DNA of 60,426 bases, taken from NCBI GenBank assembly GCA_028696995.1, contig JAQVFY010000004.1, forward strand, positions 1 to 60,426. The letters are read 5' to 3'. The notes beneath the pieces were generated by a model, which was not told the DNA's origin, ran no database searches, and worked only from the letters and a program-made list of their open reading frames with translations. The stretch comes from Patescibacteria group bacterium. GTDB lineage: Bacteria > Patescibacteriota > Patescibacteriia > Patescibacteriales > UBA12465. Numbering within the stretch: the first letter of the stretch is position 1; each line of letters opens with the position of its first letter. The position numbers were made by a program, and so were the translations under genes. This document shows, in pieces, positions 2,630 to 44,125 of this stretch.

Positions 2630-5600
2630 CTATTTTTGAGCTAACCAGACAACAAAATGCCGTTCAGATTTTAAATTTAATTTATTTACCTTAAAACCAA
2701 CCTCTTTTAGGAGGGTCTCCATTTCGTCTTCGGTTAAATCGTAGGCCATATTGGGCAAACCGGACTCATTATCAAACTTATCACGTAATAACATACCTGC
2801 ATACCTAACGTTATTTTCCGGACGTCTTTCAGTATAAAAAATTATATCTTTTTGTTCTTTAGTTTTATTAATTTTCAAGCTCGCAACTATTTTTTTGGAA
2901 GGAATTTCATCATCTTTATATTTATCTACATATAGATAGCCACCTTTTTTTAGAAGGTTATAGTATATTTGTAATGTTGCCTTAATTTTTTCTAAACTTT
3001 TCTTTTTGTCTATTTTAATCTCCTCATTCCAGCCACCATTTGCATATATAATTGTATTCCCACGATTAAATAAAAAATCAAATGAATTTTTCTTAAAATA
3101 TTTCTCCAAATCTAACCAAGGAGAAATTATAATCTCATGCTTAAGCCCTATCTTTTCTAAATCTTTTTTAAACGGCTTAGTCATAAAAACACTTTTATCC
3201 GCAATTTTAAAATTATACCCCTTTATGAGCATTTCTTTAACAAAAAAACCTGGGCCAACCGAAGTGTCTAAAAATCTTGATTTTTTATTTAAACCACAAT
3301 CTTTGAATAAATCTTCAATTTCGCCTACGTACTCATCAACATCATAAAGAAGATTATATTCACACATCTTCCATAATTCAGGAAAATCAGGTTCTTTCTC
3401 AACTTCAATTTCTTGAAGCAAGTCTTTATCACTAATATATTTAATTTCAGCCCCCGTTGCTAAATACCTGGCTGAATCTGGTCCCAGGGGAATATTAAAA
3501 AATTTAAAACTACCCAGATTTTTTTCTTGAAGCATTGTTTTGACATACAACTCAGCTCCTCTCGTAACCGCATCATCACACATAGCGGGGGTTAGCATGA
3601 TAAGAATCTTGTTTTTTGATTTAATCTTGGGTTTTAAAACCTTTTCTGAAACATAATTAAAGTCAATAATATCAGTCTTGCCAAATAATTCTGCTATAAA
3701 TTGACAAACCTCAACTATACAAAATTTTCCACCTGTTTTAGAGTTAAATGTGTTAAAAGTGCATGTTTTTATTTCTTGATTATCAAGAATCTTTATAGAC
3801 AAATCCCAAGTCTCTTTATTAAAAGAATAATTAATCATTCCATTAAAATACTCCTTATTTTTACTAATAAAGTTTTTAAATCTAGCCCGAAGAGCAGTTT
3901 CGCATATATATTTATTCCTATCAAAATTCAAAATATCGTCCTTAATTAATCCTCCTTTGTCTAATATTTCTTGATATATATCCGGTATTTTATTTTTAGA
4001 GTATCTATCCAATAACTCAACCCTATACTCTTCCGCGCTTTTATTATTATTTCTTTTTAATAGCCTTAACTCATTTATTCCTGTAGTATCATTTGCAATT
4101 GTTGTCAATTTGGCAGAAACTCCTTCGCTCTTAAGAAATGAACAAATTTCAACACCCAGTTTCCAGCTATAAATAGGAAAGGTTGTCATGCCCAGCTCAT
4201 CTAAATATTTATGTAAATTTTCAGGCATCAAATCTTTTATACTGGGATAAAAAGTGTTTCCATCTAAATCAGGTACGGCCATAAAATGACCGGCCATAAT
4301 AATAACTTCTGTATTTTTTTTATCATGAATACTATCTATAATTTTGCTTAAAATTTGTTTTTTTGAATTAACTAAAATATTTCTTTTATAATAAACAAAA
4401 TTCCTAAACCTCTCTAAATTCTCATTCTTGATAAGCCCTTTCTTTTTGTCAAGATAAAACTTCAATTCCTGAACAAACCTCTCTATATCATCCTCATCAT
4501 TATAACACCCTAGACTAACCCTAATTGTCTCTGAGCCCAATTCATCACTCAGTGGAAAGGCGCAATGAGATCCATATCGGATACAAATCTTTCTCTTATT
4601 AAAATGATCACCAATATCCTTAACGGACTCATCTTTAATAGAAAAAGAAACCAAACCTATTTTATCTTCTATCCTCTTTGGTCCATAAATACTTAGACCC
4701 TCTATTTCACTCAATTTATCAATAAGAGATTTTAATAATTCCAATTCATGTTTTCGTATTTCTAGATAAGACACTGAACGAATAAAATTAACTGCTTCTG
4801 ATAAAGCAATAATATTAGAAACATTAGGAGTGCCTCCCTCTAATCCGGCTAATCCCGGTAATAGATCTAGCACCAAATCATCCTTCTTTTTCCCTTTAAC
4901 AATAGAGGCATCACTTACTACTCCCCCACCAATACGAACCATTTTCATAAGTGGCCAAACATTTTTTGAGGCAAATAATACTCCAACTCCATCAGGGCCA
5001 TACATTTTATGAGAAGAAAAAGCACAGAAATCACATTTAGCCTTTTTAGTATCTACCGGAATATGGGAAATGGAATTAGCTGAATCAATTATATAGATAA
5101 TATCTTTATTAAACTTCTTTATTAGAGCTCCTATTTTTTCAATTGGATTAATCCCTCCTAGAACATTGGATGAATGTTGTAGAGACACTATTTTTGTCTT
5201 AGATGATAATTTTTCCTTTAAATCATTTACATCGATTAGCCCATCCTTTAAACCAACAACTCGAAAAATTGCTCCTCTTTCTATCATTTTCTTAAAAGGA
5301 AGCATATTAGAGTGATGCTCAGCAATAGAGATAATTATTTCATCGCCCTTTTTTATCTCGTCTAAAATGGTGTCCACAGCCAAATTAATTGAATCAGTGG
5401 TATTTCCGGTAAAAACAATTTCTTCTTTTTGACAATTTATGAAACGAGCAATATTCTCTCTAGCCAAATCAATTTTTTCTTCGTTTTTAGTGGCAATAGA
5501 GTGAGAACTTCTGTGTGGATTACCCTTATTCTCTAAACCAGAATGAGCAACATTAATAACTACAGCTGGAGTCTGCGTTGTAGCAGCGCTATCCAAATAC

Positions 5601-14607: not shown

Positions 14608-15465
14608 TTATAAGTGAACGAACAGGTAGGCGTTGATAGCCTTGCTCTCATGCTTGTAGCCAAGAGCAATAAGTCCACTACCGAATTTTTGGAATTTGAA
14701 TCCTTTAATGAAGCCGAACTCCATCCTTGGAAATTCGGCAGACACGGATTCATATCCGGCGTCGAGGTAGATACTCATGTCATTTCCAATGTCAACATTG
14801 GAAAAATTGGCGATTACGTTAGATTCACCAATTCTCTCGAAAGAGATGACATTATATAATCTCCCAACGGAGAAAACGGTGGCCGCGCCAATCCTTTCAT
14901 TAAAGACAGAGTAGTATGAAACGAATTCCGCTTTTTTAAAATATAATTTGGCGTGATACTCGGCCTTATCTCCCCTTTCGGCAACACCAAGGCCCAAACA
15001 GATGCCATTTTTGAGGCGGTAGGTAGCCTTAGCACCCAGGGCTCCTCCGGGAATCCTGGAATGAGTCCAGGTCTCAAAATGACCGTCACCAGTCGGAGGT
15101 AATGGTCTCAATTCCGTGGATAAAGTAGCCATACGACCGATTTCCAAACCCATTCTTTCTTTATAGGAATGGAACTTGATCGAAACTGAATTCATCGGTA
15201 ATCCGTTGCCATCCGAATAATCGAACGTCGCAAAGGATTTCACCCTCATGAACGGCAATGCTTGCCAGGCGAGAATGCTTCCGACGCGGAAGCTATAGAA
15301 AAACTCCTGAGCGGATTCATCCACCGAAAATGCGGTGGTGTTCAATACGCCGGCATAAACGCTGGCAGTGATGCTACTGTCCTTAGAGGTCAAGCCTGAA
15401 ATCTGAGCCTGAGAAATCTGAACAAACAACAAAGAAACAAAAACAATAATAAAAAACTTTTTCAT
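14608..15465 (-). CDS. secreted beta-strand-rich protein, outer-membrane-barrel-like, in a GC-rich island
   Basis: The 285-aa product has the signal peptide MKKFFIIVFVSLLFVQISQAQ. It shows many alternating hydrophobic/polar stretches and G/Y/F-rich segments. G+C is far above the flanks. Confidence 0.6.
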   Translation of the reverse strand: MKKFFIIVFVSLLFVQISQAQISGLTSKDSSITASVYAGVLNTTAFSVDESAQEFFYSFRVGSILAWQALPFMRVKSFATFDYSDGNGLPMNSVSIKFHSYKERMGLEIGRMATLSTELRPLPPTGDGHFETWTHSRIPGGALGAKATYRLKNGICLGLGVAERGDKAEYHAKLYFKKAEFVSYYSVFNERIGAATVFSVGRLYNVISFERIGESNVIANFSNVDIGNDMSIYLDAGYESVSAEFPRMEFGFIKGFKFQKFGSGLIALGYKHESKAINAYLFVHL

Positions 15466-15486: not shown

Positions 15487-16113
15487 TTAATTTATTTTCC
15501 AATTAACTCCCAACCTCAGAAGCTGGGTTTTGTTTGTGATGTCATAAGCGATATCGGTGTAAGCCGAAAAATCGCTGCTGACTTTTTGGGTGTACCTCAG
15601 GCACGAAACGTGCTTAGGCGCATCCTTTTGAAAACTGATCACCGTATGCGACACTCGGAATCTCCAGATATCATAATTTACAACATTTACCAAAAAAAGA
15701 AATGAAGGCTCGACGTCCCAACTACCTTCAGGTTGACCGAATGAACAGCCAGCCCAATGAAGAGTTGAAAAACCCTTAAAAGGACTTGTTGTCATAATTG
15801 CCCCAGCGTAAGGGACATTTTTGAAATAACCGGCGCTAGGTCCGAGATGAATCTTCTTCTTTCCTCCGATGGAGAAAAAATGATTAATCAGGATCTTGTC
15901 CTGGGCGAAGGTTATCTGCGACGCCCCATACTTCTGCGAACTGGAATTAAAAATAATATAAATTCCGGATCCCAGAGCACTGCGCCCCGAAGAGAAATCA
16001 ATATTTTTCAATTGAAACCCGGAGGCTGTCTGAGCCACCGAAGAATCAACCTGAGCTTGAGCAAAAAAAATTGCTCCAAAAATAAAAAAACAAATAGCAA
16101 TAGCTTTTTTCAT
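15487..16113 (-). CDS. secreted small beta-barrel-like protein (about the size of an 8-10-stranded OMP) in a GC-rich island
   Basis: The 208-aa product has the signal peptide MKKAIAICFFIFGAIFFAQAQ and the C-terminal strand LLRLGVNWKIN. The lines at 15541-15660 count 28/60 and 30/60 G+C. Confidence 0.6.
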   Translation of the reverse strand: MKKAIAICFFIFGAIFFAQAQVDSSVAQTASGFQLKNIDFSSGRSALGSGIYIIFNSSSQKYGASQITFAQDKILINHFFSIGGKKKIHLGPSAGYFKNVPYAGAIMTTSPFKGFSTLHWAGCSFGQPEGSWDVEPSFLFLVNVVNYDIWRFRVSHTVISFQKDAPKHVSCLRYTQKVSSDFSAYTDIAYDITNKTQLLRLGVNWKIN

Positions 16114-40023: not shown

Positions 40024-40851
40024 TTATTCGGGAATAATAACTGCTACGATACTCAAATTATTAATACTAAAAAGAGCTTCAGCATTAATATCTTGCCAAA
40101 CATCATTTACTTCTTGATTAACATAATTTATTTTACCAACTGCTAAACCTCGAGGAATATCTCGCTCTAAACCAGAGGTTATAATTCTATCTCCAACATT
40201 AACTACTTCATTTTGCGAAACAAAATTAACTTTAATAGACAAGCCTAAATCCCCCTCCGCCAAACCAATACTCTTAGTAGAATTACTAAGAGAAACAGCC
40301 ATTTTACAAAAATTATTATTAATTAAACAAACCCGAGAGCTTTTATCTTCAACTTCAATTATTTTACCAATAATAACCCCTGTTTCACTAACAATAGCCA
40401 AACCTTCTCGTAGACCATCGCGACCACCCTTATCTATAACTATATTTTGATTATAATGAGAAAAATTTAAAAGATTTTCCTGCCAAACAACATTGGCTAA
40501 AATATAACGAAAAGATCTTTCATTAAAAAAATTTAAATATCCTCTAAGTTGAGCATTTTCCTCTTCTAAAGAATAAAATTTTGCTAAATCAACCTCATTC
40601 AATTGCTTCTCCTCCTCTAATAAAGAAATCTCTTCTAATAATGAACTTCGAGTTTTTTTCTCATCTGTAAGCCCACTAGAACTTTCTCGAATAATTTTAG
40701 CACCAGGATTAATAATTTGAGAAAATAAACGACGACCCCAGGAAGAAAAACCGATAACATTTAAAAAAATGAGCAGTCCAAAAACTGCCAAGATTAATCT
40801 AAATTTTTTTCTATCTCCTAAAATACTCATATCTTTAAAAATATTAAACAC
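40024..40851 (-). CDS. mreC: rod shape-determining protein MreC
   Basis: The 275-aa product has a TM anchor, a coiled-coil segment (LEEENAQLRG) and the motif ITSGLERDIPRGLAVGKI. It overlaps the end of mreB by 8 nt. Confidence 0.8.
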   Translation of the reverse strand: MFNIFKDMSILGDRKKFRLILAVFGLLIFLNVIGFSSWGRRLFSQIINPGAKIIRESSSGLTDEKKTRSSLLEEISLLEEEKQLNEVDLAKFYSLEEENAQLRGYLNFFNERSFRYILANVVWQENLLNFSHYNQNIVIDKGGRDGLREGLAIVSETGVIIGKIIEVEDKSSRVCLINNNFCKMAVSLSNSTKSIGLAEGDLGLSIKVNFVSQNEVVNVGDRIITSGLERDIPRGLAVGKINYVNQEVNDVWQDINAEALFSINNLSIVAVIIPE

Positions 40852-41887
40852 TTAAAGTCGAAGTAATCTTTTTAAGTAAATCTTCATCACTAAAAAGAGA
40901 CCCCGATCCTCTAACCATAGCCGAAAGAGGATCATCTACTACTATTACTGGAATTTTGGTGGCTCGAGAAATTAATTTATCTAAACCATAAAGCAAAGCC
41001 CCGCCACCACTTAAATACAAACCATGTTCATAAATATCAGCTACTAATTCTGGAGGAGTTTCTTCTAAAGTTAATTTGATACTCTCCACGATTTTAATAA
41101 TTGTTTTTTTAATAGCATCTCGAACTTGATTATCATTAATAGTGATAGCAGTTGGTAATCCATTCATTAAATCCCTCCCCCTTATTTCCATAGTTCTTTC
41201 CTCTTCAAAAGATAAAACTGAAGCTAAATTAATTTTTATTTTTTCGGCTAATTGTTCTCCAATTAAAAGATTAAAGTTATCTCTAATATAATCTGTAATA
41301 TTACTATCTAATTCATTTCCGGCCAAACGCAAAGACTTCCAGGATACTACTCCAGTCAAAGAAATAACAGCAATATCTGTTGTCCCTCCCCCAATATCAA
41401 CTATCATATTGGCTCTAGGACTATCAACTGGAAGACCGGCACCTAAAGCCGCAGCCATAACTTCCTCTATTAAATAAACTTTGCGAGCTCCAGCTGATTT
41501 AGCTGCATCCTCAACTGCCTTTTTTTCCACCTCAGTAATATCTAATGGAACTCCAATAATAACTCGAGGACGAGGCAAAAAAGAAAAACCTTCACCATGA
41601 ACTTTATTAATAAAATGCTTCAACATTTTTTCTGTAATCTCAAAATCAGAAATAACTCCATCAACCAAAGGCTTAACAGCTTGAATATGAGCTGGAGTTT
41701 TCCCCACCATTTTTTTAGCCTCATGACCAATTTCTAAAATTTCCGTAGTCTTAGTATTTACAGCCACAACACTAGGCTCATTAATAATAATACCCTTACC
41801 ACTAACATAAACCAAAGTATTTTTGGTTCCCAAATCAATAGCAATATCATGGCTTAAATTACCAAATTTTTTAAAAATATTAAACAT
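40844..41887 (-). CDS. mreB: rod shape-determining actin homolog MreB (paralog 2, in the mreBCD operon)
   Basis: The 347-aa product carries IAIDLGTKNT, NEPSVVA, DIGGGTTD and GLYLSGGGA. Confidence 0.9.
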   Translation of the reverse strand: MFNIFKKFGNLSHDIAIDLGTKNTLVYVSGKGIIINEPSVVAVNTKTTEILEIGHEAKKMVGKTPAHIQAVKPLVDGVISDFEITEKMLKHFINKVHGEGFSFLPRPRVIIGVPLDITEVEKKAVEDAAKSAGARKVYLIEEVMAAALGAGLPVDSPRANMIVDIGGGTTDIAVISLTGVVSWKSLRLAGNELDSNITDYIRDNFNLLIGEQLAEKIKINLASVLSFEEERTMEIRGRDLMNGLPTAITINDNQVRDAIKKTIIKIVESIKLTLEETPPELVADIYEHGLYLSGGGALLYGLDKLISRATKIPVIVVDDPLSAMVRGSGSLFSDEDLLKKITSTLSV

Positions 41888-41962
41888 ATTTTAAAATATT
41901 TTCTTTTTTATATAGAAATAAACAGCAAAAAACTCGAATAATTATAATTACTGAGTACCATT

Positions 41963-41991
41963 ATCATAACTTAAAAAAATGCTTTTGTAAA
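41963..41991 (-). promoter_or_regulatory. sigma70 promoter TTTACA-17-TATGAT for mreBCD
   Basis: On the minus strand, TTTACA is at 41991-41986, the spacer is 17 nt and TATGAT is at 41968-41963. Confidence 0.5.
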
Positions 41992-42002
41992 TACTAAGTT
42001 TT

Positions 42003-42041
42003 AAATAAAAAAGAGCGGGTTTCTTGTGAAACGACGCTCTT
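42003..42041 (-). terminator. rho-independent terminator of the GC-rich lipoprotein gene
   Basis: The minus strand reads AAGAGCG..GTTTC-ACAA-GAAAC..CGCTCTT followed by TTTTATTT. Confidence 0.7.
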
Positions 42042-42064
42042 GAAAACCTTTCAATCTAATAGTC

Positions 42065-42574
42065 TTAGAAAACTATATAGAAGCCCGTTTTAAAAACGGA
42101 AACCGATCCGGGCATATAGTCATCCTTGACGATGGCCAGACTACTACGCCCTGCTATCACATTGTGATAGAGTTTGTAGTCGCCGTTGAGATCGGTCAAC
42201 GGGAAGCTCTCTTCCCCGACCCTGGGGATGCTATCTCCGTCATAGAAAGAGATTCTCAGGATGTCGTTTCCGACAAGCTGATGATTAAATTTCCAGGACT
42301 TGTCGGTGTCGCCCGACTGTATTAGTTTACCCTCGCTAAAAACGATGGCGTAATCGTTTTCCCATCCCTCTATCTGGTGATAAAAGGAGTCATGAGACGA
42401 GGAGACGACCAGATGATCATTCTTCTCGATTCTCAGTATCTTGTTATACTGATTCATGACAGAGACAAAATTACCTCTCACCCAATACTGCTCCTCCTTT
42501 TGACAGGAAGAAAAAACGGTGATAATAACAGCAATCAGGGCAACAATAAGAGAAAAGCTTTTCATTTTTTTCAT
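42065..42574 (-). CDS. putative lipoprotein of unknown function in a GC-rich island
   Basis: The 169-aa product has a signal peptide ending VFSSC, a lipobox-like Cys followed by QKEEQ. It is beta-rich and ends in F. The line at 42121-42180 counts 28/60 G+C. Confidence 0.6.
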   Translation of the reverse strand: MKKMKSFSLIVALIAVIITVFSSCQKEEQYWVRGNFVSVMNQYNKILRIEKNDHLVVSSSHDSFYHQIEGWENDYAIVFSEGKLIQSGDTDKSWKFNHQLVGNDILRISFYDGDSIPRVGEESFPLTDLNGDYKLYHNVIAGRSSLAIVKDDYMPGSVSVFKTGFYIVF

Positions 42575-42590
42575 AATCTTTTTTTGTTTT

Positions 42591-42644
42591 TTGGTTAGTA
42601 TTTACAAATATTCTACTAGTAAAACACTTGTAAATACCAACCAA
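42591..42644 (-). promoter_or_regulatory. long 5'-leader hairpin with a 17-bp inverted repeat (16/17 matched)
   Basis: TTGGTTAGTATTTACAA (42591-42607) pairs with TTGTAAATACCAACCAA (42628-42644). The loop is 20 nt. The element lies between the promoter and the ATG at 42574. Confidence 0.55.
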
Positions 42645-42676
42645 AATACTTTCAAAGAACTATCATGACAATACTT

Positions 42677-42705
42677 ATTATATCATAAATAACATAAAAT
42701 GTCAA
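42677..42705 (-). promoter_or_regulatory. consensus sigma70 promoter TTGACA-17-TGaTATAAT (extended -10)
   Basis: On the minus strand, TTGACA is at 42705-42700, the spacer is 17 nt and TGATATAAT is at 42685-42677. Both boxes and their flanks are identical to the promoter at 16247-16275. Confidence 0.75.
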
Positions 42706-42768
42706 TGACTTTGAATAAAGGTCAATAAAATATGGGCTTTTATCAATAAACACTTAAACAAAAAACTA

Positions 42769-42797
42769 TTGACATAATATTTTAAAAATAGTAATAT
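42769..42797 (+). promoter_or_regulatory. sigma70 promoter TTGACA-17-TAATAT, divergent from the previous promoter
   Basis: TTGACA is at 42769-42774, the spacer is 17 nt and TAATAT is at 42792-42797. Confidence 0.65.
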
Positions 42798-42848
42798 GAA
42801 CTGTTAATAAATAGTTCTTCAAAATATAAACAAAACCAAAAAGAAAAA

Positions 42849-43475
42849 ATGAAAACAAAAAGATTGTTTTTATCGGCAGTTGTAGTTATTGTGCTGGTGT
42901 TTAGCACCGGGTGGTCAGAAAAAAAAGATTGCCAAAATGATTACTACCGGGGATTCTGGATGGACAGCGAGATGTATGCAAGAGTGGATGGTTATAAAAA
43001 ACAGCTACTCTACATACAAAAAAAAGAGCTCCATCTAATGGTGGATAGTTTATGGTTCAAACCAGCTCCCTTCAAGCTTCCTGGCGACAGAGTTGTCTTG
43101 GAATGCGAAGAAACAGGAGAAAAAATAGTTTTCGCCTGGAGAGATGAGGATAGAAAACTATCTTCTCGTGTCCCCCTCCGAAAACGTTTTAACTGGCACG
43201 TAAGAAGCAATGACCTTATGGTCCTCTATACTAAGGGAGACACAACTATTTGCTTTATGCTTAAAAAATCAGGAGAGGGCGGATGGTATGCAAAGGATGC
43301 AGAGGGCAAATTTTTTCTGAGCACTGGCGGATATGAACTTGCTGAAACCCGGTTCAGATATGCCGAAGAAGAAGAAATCAATATTCTCAAAAAAAGAACC
43401 ATTGACATCTTCTACAATATACTCCAGGAACAAGGATCGTTGCTTCCCAAGAAATTAAGGAGAGTGAAGCATTGA
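42849..43475 (+). CDS. secreted or membrane-anchored protein of unknown function in a GC-rich island
   Basis: The 208-aa product has the N-terminal hydrophobic signal or anchor MKTKRLFLSAVVVIVLVFSTG. I recognise no motif. G+C is elevated. Confidence 0.55.
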   Translation: MKTKRLFLSAVVVIVLVFSTGWSEKKDCQNDYYRGFWMDSEMYARVDGYKKQLLYIQKKELHLMVDSLWFKPAPFKLPGDRVVLECEETGEKIVFAWRDEDRKLSSRVPLRKRFNWHVRSNDLMVLYTKGDTTICFMLKKSGEGGWYAKDAEGKFFLSTGGYELAETRFRYAEEEEINILKKRTIDIFYNILQEQGSLLPKKLRRVKH

Positions 43476-43496
43476 TCCGAAAAAATTAAAAAAAAC

Positions 43497-43523
43497 AGAC
43501 CCCTAAATAACTGGGGTCTTTTT
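43497..43523 (+). terminator. rho-independent terminator
   Basis: The hairpin AGACCCC-N9-GGGGTCT is followed by TTTT. Confidence 0.75.
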
Positions 43524-43546
43524 AATTCTTCTCTTGTGTTTAAATA

Positions 43547-44125
43547 CTAATTCTTTGATAACTTTTTTAAAGCCTCTCTAATACGCTGACCACTATCAAC
43601 AACATCCTTATCAACCTGATTAAGTGCTTCACGGGCTTCTGGCAAAGAATAACCCAAAACCATTAAGGCGTCAATTTCATCAGCCGAAAATCCTCCTCCG
43701 CTTGATAAATCATAATCACCACCCATTTTAAATAATTTGTCTTTTAATTCCAAGACTACCCTCTCAGCAATTTTTTTACCAATACCAGAAACCTTAGTTA
43801 AGAGATGCGAATCACCGCGGACTATCGACTCCTTAATATCAGACAATTTAGCGATAGCTAAAACTGATAAAGCTGATTTTGGGCCAATACCAGAAATGGA
43901 AATGAGCAACTCAAAAAATTCTAACTCTTCTAAAGTTTTAAAACCGTATAAATCTAGGGCCTCTTCTCTGACGTATTGATGGGTGAATAATTGTAATTCT
44001 TGACCAACTTTCAATTCATTAAAAAAATTTTCACTAACAAAAACAGAGTAACCGATATTATTCACCTCCACTATTATTGTATTTTTTAATTTGTAGGAAA
44101 TTATTCCTTTTAAATATGAAATCAT
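43547..44125 (-). CDS. ruvA: Holliday junction branch migration complex subunit RuvA
   Basis: The 192-aa product starts MISYLKGII, followed by the helix-hairpin-helix segments ISGIGPKSAL and VSGIGKKIAERV. Confidence 0.9.
   Translation of the reverse strand: MISYLKGIISYKLKNTIIVEVNNIGYSVFVSENFFNELKVGQELQLFTHQYVREEALDLYGFKTLEELEFFELLISISGIGPKSALSVLAIAKLSDIKESIVRGDSHLLTKVSGIGKKIAERVVLELKDKLFKMGGDYDLSSGGGFSADEIDALMVLGYSLPEAREALNQVDKDVVDSGQRIREALKKLSKN

Follow-up and report, generated by a model that had tools for sequence, protein, structure and literature searches.

The 60,426-nt stretch of Patescibacteria DNA analyzed here (the window; AT-rich, overall GC 0.311) carries two orphan genes between ruvA and the promoter of mreBCD, one encoding a 169-aa lipoprotein and the other a 208-aa protein with an N-terminal signal or anchor helix. 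We consider it probable that they occupy a strain-variable accessory slot, which lies between ruvA and the (proS-)mreBCD promoter throughout a genus-level, Falkowbacteria-like clade; its core would be the lipoprotein transcription unit, with a conserved 5' leader and a coding part exchanged as alleles among strains, and the 208-aa gene would be a separate element. A preliminary description of this DNA had treated both genes as one GC-rich cassette, symmetric and complete and bracketed by a 10-bp direct repeat. Its landmarks were found again: the lipobox (VFSS-C), divergent consensus promoters, terminators, and two GC-rich open reading frames (ORFs) all lie where it had placed them, and a recount of 42121-42180 again gave 28/60 G+C. 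The two genes are indeed accessory and foreign-looking, but the unit itself consists of two monocistronic modules with separate histories, and a single cassette with a target-site duplication was not borne out. The elements of the locus, in window positions, are listed below.

40844 to 41887, minus strand: mreB, the first gene of mreBCD and the conserved left flank.
41963 to 41991, minus strand: mreBCD promoter, TTTACA-17-TATGAT, from a promoter scan; it drives proS-mreBCD in relatives.
42005 to 42041, minus strand: predicted intrinsic terminator of the lipoprotein gene (fold of -14.6 kcal/mol plus a U-tract).
42065 to 42574, minus strand: orphan lipoprotein gene, 169 aa, an ORF with a lipobox and a GC-rich, allele-variable mature domain.
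42571 to 42670, minus strand: conserved 5' leader of the lipoprotein gene, about 100 nt, from about 7 nt past the -10 box to the start codon.
42677 to 42705, minus strand: lipoprotein promoter, TTGACA-17-TATAAT with an extended -10 TG (scan score 12/12).
42769 to 42797, plus strand: promoter of the 208-aa gene, TTGACA-17-TAATAT (scan score 10/12), conserved in loci L008 and L090.
42849 to 43475, plus strand: orphan 208-aa protein gene, an ORF with presence/absence polymorphism.
43497 to 43524, both strands: predicted bidirectional terminator for the convergent 208-aa gene and ruvA (-15.2/-15.5 kcal/mol, U-tracts on both strands), retained in L009.
43547 to 44125, minus strand: ruvA, which forms the conserved right flank; in its L001 homolog Pfam recognizes RuvA_N, HHH_5, and RuvA_C.

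The nearest relatives of the window's MreB come from metagenome-assembled genomes labelled Candidatus Falkowbacteria, Patescibacteria, or Parcubacteria, the best being L009 (CAYPAP010000001.1) at 96%; we therefore take the host to be a Falkowbacteria-like member of the Patescibacteria. The contents of the slot were surveyed in 23 loci holding both ruvA and mreB, to which the window and L090 were added.

Empty slot: L011 and L033.
Class-II aminoacyl-tRNA synthetase gene alone: 13 loci.
Lipoprotein gene alone: L001 and its identical copies (L001-L005).
Lipoprotein gene and proS: L007 and L089.
208-aa gene and lipoprotein gene: L008, the window, and L090.
Remnant of the 208-aa gene, a diversity-generating retroelement (DGR), and proS: L009.

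The synthetase gene was identified as proS (TIGR00409, E = 6.8e-135), and it follows from the distribution that ruvA-(proS)-mreBCD is the ancestral order, to which both orphan genes are accessory additions. Presence of one does not depend on presence of the other. L001, L007, and L089 have the lipoprotein gene but lack the 208-aa gene; the latter is present in the window, L008, L090, and L092 and reduced to a 33-aa remnant in L009. Even L001 and L090, whose mreB genes are 97% identical, differ in this respect, L090 having the 208-aa gene and L001 lacking it, and therefore the two genes are not one unit. The 208-aa gene is best read as an independent insertion/deletion polymorphism beside the lipoprotein gene. 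L009 has undergone a deletion that left the 3' end of the 208-aa gene fused to what remains of the lipoprotein unit, its final ∼10 nt of coding sequence plus the terminator, so the ancestor of L009 carried both genes.

On every contig with the lipoprotein gene, ruvA lies on one side of it and the proS or mreB promoter on the other. Relatives with the gene in this place come from at least seven independent datasets (the SRR309498xx series, SRR29699985, SRR22315506, SRR29243437, JGI 3300078335 and 3300037067, and the window itself). More than 10 contigs, again from at least seven independent datasets and assemblers, show the junctions ruvA-lipoprotein gene-proS/mreB promoter. The preliminary description had allowed that evidence of an assembly chimera might undo its claim. 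In such a chimera, GC-rich sequence of another organism would have been joined into a Patescibacteria contig. The jump in composition is the only point in its favor; the genes come with a promoter, leader, and terminators of their own, all AT rich, and since the same junctions recur in so many independent datasets, we regard this explanation as practically out of the question. The same description had held that relatives with the same genes in the same place and with native composition would count against a foreign cassette; relatives with the lipoprotein gene in that place do exist, but its composition is equally non-native in them, so this expectation is borne out only in part.

The lipoprotein alleles have a history of their own. 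The protein has six relatives at 70 to 77% amino acid identity, all on metagenome contigs, and a HMMER profile search of 1.84 billion representatives added one true distant homolog, P0010 (26 to 30% identity); a second match, P0009, was a low-complexity repeat protein and was rejected as spurious. P0010 lies on L094, a 724-bp ENA contig, with a hairpin just upstream of its start codon. The N terminus of the window protein, MKKMKSFSLIVALIAVIITVFSS followed by C, is a signal peptide ending in a lipobox; FSSC is invariant in 7/7 alleles, the distant homolog has LGSC, and the residues C-QKEEQ from the lipobox cysteine onward are likewise invariant in the seven alleles, with C-QKNEE in P0010. The lipoprotein promoter is kept in 6/7 loci, having been replaced in L091, and the terminator is conserved in 7/7 loci and retained in the L009 deletion remnant as well.

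Between the window and L008, nucleotide identity per 60-nt block is 95 to 100% over mreBCD, the mreB promoter, the terminator, the spacer, the 208-aa gene, and ruvA, and falls with sharp edges to 60 to 80% between ∼42037 and ∼42570. Synonymous divergence (dS, Nei-Gojobori) is 0 in mreD, 0.06 in mreC, 0.16 in mreB, and 0.20 in the 208-aa gene, versus 1.55 in the lipoprotein gene, where nonsynonymous divergence (dN) is 0.19 and dN/dS 0.12. The lipoprotein alleles are therefore much older than the strains that carry them. They are under purifying selection, and their divergence is not the product of positive selection in situ or of targeted hypermutation; the differences span the whole gene and are not adenine specific. 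The 208-aa gene, with dN/dS of 0.11 to 0.15, is likewise under purifying selection, and both orphan proteins are predicted to be exported, one as a lipoprotein and the other through its signal or anchor helix.

Allele kinship cuts across the mreB groups. Within {window, L008} and {L001, L090, L091}, mreB is 96 to 99% identical, but the lipoprotein alleles are only 73 to 85% identical; in L001, L090, and L091, a second species-level group, the figures are 97 to 99% and 73 to 85%. The L008 allele is nearest that of L001 (84% overall, 91 to 92% centrally), and towards the 3' end its closest relative switches to L007 and then to L089/L091. In a test of the pairwise homoplasy index (PHI) type, informative sites that lie close together proved more compatible than distant ones (0.516 versus 0.587 ± 0.011 after permutation; 0/2000 permutations were as low); this is a signature of recombination. 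The coding part thus exists as old mosaic alleles under purifying selection.

The main element would then be a transcription unit made of a consensus sigma-70-type promoter, the ∼100-nt leader, the 169-aa coding sequence, and the intrinsic terminator, lying in the slot beside a second, separately transcribed gene for an exported orphan protein. We infer that its alleles are exchanged among strains and species by homologous recombination, for which the near-invariant leader and the terminator/promoter could serve as flanking homology. Such a pattern would be expected of a cell-surface protein on which phage, host, or competitors impose balancing or frequency-dependent selection.

Parts of this picture recall the ospC and vlsE loci of Borrelia. 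As is generally known of those loci, they too involve small lipoprotein genes in an AT-rich reduced genome, with deeply diverged mosaic alleles between near-identical strains and conserved flanks; vlsE is also GC richer and has an inverted repeat beside its promoter. Programmed antigenic variation of the vlsE kind rewrites an expressed gene from silent cassettes; in vlsE these are GC rich, an inverted repeat lies close to the promoter, and the process depends on RuvAB. A GC-rich lipoprotein gene in an AT-rich reduced genome, a variable region with conserved edges and mosaic alleles, a long inverted repeat beside the promoter, and the adjacent ruvA would all fit such a system. Silent donor cassettes were sought by comparing all alleles with the rest of the 60-kb window by blastn and tblastn, which gave no credible match to DNA or peptide segments of the lipoprotein; one tblastn match, at 5327-5452, proved to be a chance CQKEE in a cysteine-desulfurase-like ORF. 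The lipoprotein gene shows no GC skew, one allele is identical in six samples, and the gene-wide differences with dN/dS of 0.12 fit old alleles rather than ongoing cassette shuffling. Unlike the Borrelia proteins, with which it shares no sequence or detectable fold similarity, the lipoprotein shows no gene-averaged positive selection, and its carrier is a member of the Patescibacteria. We therefore regard a vlsE-like system as highly improbable.

A different diversifying system does occupy the slot in a sister genome. In L009 (675-4655) the ruvA-mreB interval carries a DGR with a target gene encoding 700 aa, a bAvd gene (PF22296, E = 1e-18), and a reverse transcriptase split over two ORFs. Its variable (∼2644-2776) and template (∼3096-3228) repeats match over 133 nt at 88% identity, with differences falling mostly at template adenines, and the cassette is bracketed by two copies of 25 to 40 nt of the proS/mreB promoter. 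With its DGR in the same slot, L009 resembles other Patescibacteria with DGR-diversified surface proteins, and the slot therefore recurrently hosts diversifying exported proteins. Unlike L009, the window contains no reverse transcriptase, Avd, or template repeat, and the lipoprotein differences are of another kind, gene-wide rather than confined to adenines.

The most conserved part of the lipoprotein unit is its leader. Mean column identity over the seven loci is 92%, compared with differences of ∼27% among their coding sequences, and upstream of the lipoprotein promoter the DNA cannot be aligned between loci with and without the 208-aa gene. The leader is predicted to form a 27-bp hairpin (42589-42646) with a CUAG loop, corresponding to a 54-bp palindrome, and this hairpin is enclosed by an outer stem in which UCAUGA at the 5' end (42663-42668) would pair with UUAUGA (42571-42576; AUCAUGA in the other loci), spanning the ATG at 42572-42574. 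The fold has a minimum free energy of -38.4 kcal/mol (z = -7.8). The palindrome is imperfect at four positions, each of which is a G.U pair on the sense strand. Across the seven loci pairing is kept in 98.7% of cells, with three cells unpaired, and the polymorphic pairs (A-U to G.U, U-A to U.G, G.U to A-U, and G-C to G.U) are all one-sided and wobble compatible. The L094 hairpin occupies the same position and likewise contains four G.U pairs on the sense strand; in an alignment with the family, both partners differ in 5/17 pairs, and pairing is kept in 97% of cells.

These features suggest that the leader acts as RNA. Its 5' UCAUGA would pair with the start-codon region (AUCAUGA) and close the 27-bp hairpin, and translation would be occluded until the structure is opened or cut, possibly by RNase III. 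A duplex of this length is a typical RNase III substrate. In this the leader resembles known leaders that occlude the start codon, both RNase III-processed ones and RNA thermometers: its 5' end is predicted to pair with the start region around a long duplex, and the architecture is conserved across alleles. Unlike a thermometer, at -38 kcal/mol it is far too stable, and the motif, known from eight loci and from their sequences alone, has no match in Rfam. The Rfam search gave no family at threshold, the best hits being miRNA-precursor models at 16 to 26 bits versus thresholds of 43 to 140 bits. A covariance model run over the window and 51 loci (553 kb) returned only the seven known loci and the partial L094 hairpin. 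The sole match to the invariant 21-mer of the leader in a metagenome scan, L093, was unrelated coding sequence and was set aside.

Alternatively, the palindrome might work as DNA, for instance as the operator of a dimeric regulator that also binds the proS/mreB promoter. A 14-mer, TTAGTATTTACAAA, is common to the mreB promoter (41984-41997) and the 3' arm of the leader hairpin (42595-42608), in opposite orientation, the 5' arm being GGTATTTACAAG; the sharing may reflect a common operator or a duplication derived from the promoter. The compensatory changes of L094 are equally expected of a DNA dyad, and two-sided covariation is lacking among the seven close loci. The strand bias speaks against an operator: 8/8 imperfect pairs (four in the window, four in L094) are G.U on the sense strand and would be C.A mismatches on the other, and the polymorphic one-sided changes are likewise G.U on the sense strand. 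Moreover, the palindrome sits inside the transcribed leader, nested in a second predicted helix, formed between the 5' end and the start codon. We consider a DNA function unlikely and favor an RNA leader.

Two further observations concern the leader. An upstream ORF of four codons (42652-42666, minus strand; ATG ATA GTT CTT TGA, MIVL*) is invariant and begins ∼4 nt from the predicted transcription start; its ATG lies within the UCAUGA that would pair with the main start codon. In L091, positions 1-214, that is, everything upstream of the first conserved leader base (TGTCATGA...), are unrelated to the other loci, and the lipoprotein promoter has been lost; the break falls exactly at the predicted transcription start and may reflect either a genuine rearrangement or an assembly join. 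These 214 nt gave no tRNA or Rfam match.

The 10-bp direct repeat was the main argument for a single island. The 10-mer, TAAATACTAA, has four copies in the window (0.85 expected), all within 41751-43550, as follows.

41751 to 41760: a copy within mreB, over codons V-N-T-K.
41988 to 41997, plus strand: copy 1, overlapping the -35 (TTTACA) of the mreB promoter.
42595 to 42604, minus strand: copy 3, in the 3' arm of the leader hairpin.
43541 to 43550, plus strand: copy 2, overlapping the ruvA stop TAG (43547-43549).

Both flanking copies are thus where the preliminary description had put them, but one belongs to a promoter -35 and the other overlaps a stop codon. Within the window, a direct repeat of at least 10 bp joins 2.0% of pairs of 60-bp segments 1.55 kb apart and 5.7% of AT-rich pairs; the bracketing 10-mer alone is therefore not remarkable. 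Only loci that carry the 208-aa gene have the ruvA-side copy (the window, L008, and L092). L009 has TTAGTATTTG there, one mismatch from the 10-mer, and in L001, L007, and L089, whose only orphan gene is that of the lipoprotein, ruvA ends in AAC TAA or AGT TAA and the 10-mer is absent.

An empty site with a single copy had been proposed as a test, and L010 (proS only) and L011 (empty slot) do hold exactly one TTAGTATTTA between ruvA and the next gene. In both, however, that copy is the -35 and upstream part of the conserved promoter, [CT]TAGTATTTACAAAAGCATTTT, which lies 25 to 28 bp past the ruvA stop and is found in all relatives with or without the orphan genes. The form AGTATTTACAAAAGCATTTTTTTAAGTTATGAT in the mreB promoter is kept in L001, L007-L011, and L089-L091, lipoprotein gene present or not, and the promoter before proS or mreB reads [CT][CT]AGTATTTACAAAAGCATTTT...TATGAT in every relative. 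The single copy is thus probably a functional promoter element, not a neutral target, and the bracketing 10-mer, read as promoter-derived sequence, is not supported as a target-site duplication of one island. As the promoter copies around the L009 DGR also show, promoter-derived sequence recurs at junctions in the slot, where it may be a recombination substrate or just a duplicated expression signal.

A single mobile cassette of both genes, inserted at TTAGTATTTA with duplication of a 10-bp target or att core, would account for the 10-mers just outside both terminators, for the lone copy in L010 and L011, for the atypical composition, and for the L009 remnant, which shows an ancestor with both genes adjacent. 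Site-specific-recombination islands have the same marks: atypical composition, accessory genes, a short direct repeat near both ends, and loci with one copy. Unlike such islands, the region has no integrase or recombinase ORF in or near it (ORFs surveyed over 38.4-47.5 kb), as the preliminary description had noticed for recombinases, and terminal inverted repeats are absent; each gene is gained or lost on its own, even within one mreB group (L001 versus L090), and the repeat is a promoter -35. The ruvA-side copy is missing from lipoprotein-only loci, another copy forms a hairpin arm, a repeat of this kind arises by chance in 2 to 6% of cases, and no relatives were found in viral contigs, plasmids, or phages. 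Taken together, these results make a single cassette very unlikely, and we retain the reading of a slot with separately varying genes.

The composition of the two genes remains to be accounted for. GC and third-position GC (GC3) are 0.435 and 0.553 in the lipoprotein gene and 0.408 and 0.416 in the 208-aa gene, versus a native GC3 of 0.226 ± 0.027 (maximum, 0.283; 39 ORFs); the spacer between the two genes has a GC of 0.20. Third-position C is 0.30 to 0.39 in the lipoprotein gene versus 0.04 to 0.08 in native genes, and its relative synonymous codon usage (RSCU) correlates with native usage at r = -0.03, versus 0.61 to 0.79 for native controls of 200 codons. GC3 is 0.50 to 0.60 in all seven alleles and 0.47 in P0010, which lies between short AT-rich flanks. 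Among degenerate codons for invariant amino acids, 81% differ at position 3 among alleles, and GC there is still 0.49 to 0.64 per allele; the foreign composition has therefore persisted through the turnover of synonymous sites. The GC-rich composition is a stable property of the gene family, not the mark of a recent import yet to be ameliorated, and no other trait of the locus is as unusual. We used the composition of variable synonymous sites in place of an equilibrium GC3 estimated from polarized singleton third-position changes, which was discarded as unreliable at this saturation (controls gave 0.45 to 0.76 versus actual values of 0.13 to 0.21).

Two candidate causes may be named. The composition may be kept in place by selection or a biased process, for example, an old foreign origin under selection; or the alleles may have diverged in a GC-richer, unsampled pool and entered repeatedly. 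Searches of 5.8 billion proteins and of viral contigs, plasmids, and phages revealed no GC-richer source pool. As a further cause, GC-biased gene conversion at a recombination hotspot was kept as a minor possibility only; the effect reported for it is a few percent, versus the 30 points seen here.

Elsewhere in the window, island 1 consists of two GC-rich ORFs (14608-15465 and 15487-16113, minus strand; GC3 0.50 and 0.42), whose codon usage correlates with that of the lipoprotein gene at r = 0.18 to 0.35. Neither gave a Pfam, NCBIfam, PHROG, or PDB match, and both are singletons at 90% clustering. A common donor with the present locus had been suggested; at r = 0.05 to 0.35 among the four genes, RSCU lends it no good support and is too weak to argue for or against. 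Paralogy of the two orphan genes was also rejected: a BLASTP match (E = 0.002) involved the window allele only, hhalign gave a probability of 0.9%, and in a shuffle test a single allele reached z = 2.4, the other seven staying at ∼0. Relatives of the 208-aa protein form one 90%-identity cluster of only four sequences.

The lipoprotein sequence nevertheless gives a lead to a possible origin. In Capnocytophaga canimorsus, the consensus lipoprotein export signal is QKDDE at +2 to +6 (Lauber et al. 2016, PMC5080379). The C-Q-K-E-E-Q of the window protein agrees with the corresponding rule, K-(D/E)2 or Q-A-(D/E)2 after the +1 cysteine. The predicted signal peptides of island 1 end in SQA-Q and AQA-Q and fit the Bacteroidetes Q-rule (PMC5837995), and among the putative donors reported for Patescibacteria, Bacteroidota are relatively frequent (PMC12455944). 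A donor from the Bacteroidota, possibly the host of an episymbiont, with one ancestral or repeated transfers, would explain these resemblances (invariant C-QKEEQ, and C-QKNEE in P0010, beside QKDDE) along with a GC of 41 to 44% and C-rich third positions unlike the host genome.

We nonetheless hold a Bacteroidota donor to be rather doubtful. No homolog of the lipoprotein was found outside the locus context of the clade, Bacteroidota included, among 5.8 billion proteins and 1.84 billion representatives; all carriers are flanked by AT-rich Patescibacteria sequence, and the promoter is a canonical sigma-70-type promoter (TTGACA/TATAAT), unlike those of Bacteroidota surface lipoproteins, and conserved with the locus. 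With turnover at 81% of synonymous positions, the composition left by one old transfer should by now have ameliorated. The motif matches are resemblances noted by visual inspection, and the codon usage of the four GC-rich genes is weakly correlated (r = 0.05 to 0.35). To our knowledge, Patescibacteria have neither an outer membrane nor a pathway that reads a lipoprotein export signal.

A more speculative extension, which we judge quite improbable, is that the lipoprotein, and possibly the island-1 proteins, are host-derived or host-directed envelope proteins of an episymbiont, with Bacteroidota-type sorting signals and a Bacteroidota-like codon usage maintained by recurrent gene flow with the host or by selection, kept polymorphic by the host-symbiont interaction and with translation gated by the leader RNA. 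If true, it would point to the host phylum of this uncultured Falkowbacteria-like clade and to its contact-surface molecules.

Several points weigh against our account of the slot as the site of an allele-exchanged surface lipoprotein with an RNA leader. As the preliminary description had found, neither orphan protein has a recognizable motif; neither matches Pfam, NCBIfam, or PHROGs above noise, or PDB sequences. AlphaFold models are of low confidence, with a mean predicted local distance difference test (pLDDT) score of 58 for the lipoprotein (mostly beta predicted) and 48.6 for the 208-aa protein, and Foldseek with the lipoprotein model returned nothing below E = 1. Lipidation and surface location are predictions from the signal peptide and lipobox, and balancing selection is read from the pattern of the alleles. 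Allele P0003 is identical in six samples of one study, so allele turnover is not rapid. In the leader, no two-sided compensatory change occurs among the seven close loci, and all five compensatory pairs come from one sequence, L094, whose contig begins inside the hairpin; the hairpin arms also resemble the -35 region of the mreB promoter, which leaves a DNA operator as a live alternative. The single TTAGTATTTA in L010 and L011 is compatible with an original insertion there, and for the stable composition there are candidate causes only.

The surroundings of the slot are otherwise conventional. The gene order at the locus is pfkB, mreD, mreC, mreB, the 169-aa ORF, the 208-aa ORF, and ruvA, all on the minus strand except the 208-aa ORF; beyond ruvA, within the 38.4-47.5 kb surveyed and again on the minus strand, a U32 peptidase, a Nif3-like protein, and pyruvate kinase are encoded. 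An 8-nt overlap (40844-40851) between the stop of mreB and the GTG listed as the start of mreC suggests translational coupling within mreBCD. In most relatives proS sits between the mreB promoter and mreB (L007, L009, L010, and L089 were compared with window 41888-41962); it has been cleanly removed from the slot in the window, L001, L008, L090, and L091, and no proS was found anywhere within the 60-kb window.

Almost nothing is known of the surface proteins by which Patescibacteria meet their hosts and phages, and this locus offers a concrete, clade-restricted candidate, with candidate trans-strain allele exchange in a slot that carries a DGR in a sister genome. Polymorphic surface-protein genes are a known type; such loci have barely been described in this phylum. 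The conserved leader is a candidate for a new cis-regulatory RNA of narrow distribution. Composition and a short flanking repeat made the region resemble a fresh mobile island, but its relatives show an old, syntenic gene with a stable foreign-looking composition, and such stability bears on the limits of amelioration arguments for dating transfers.

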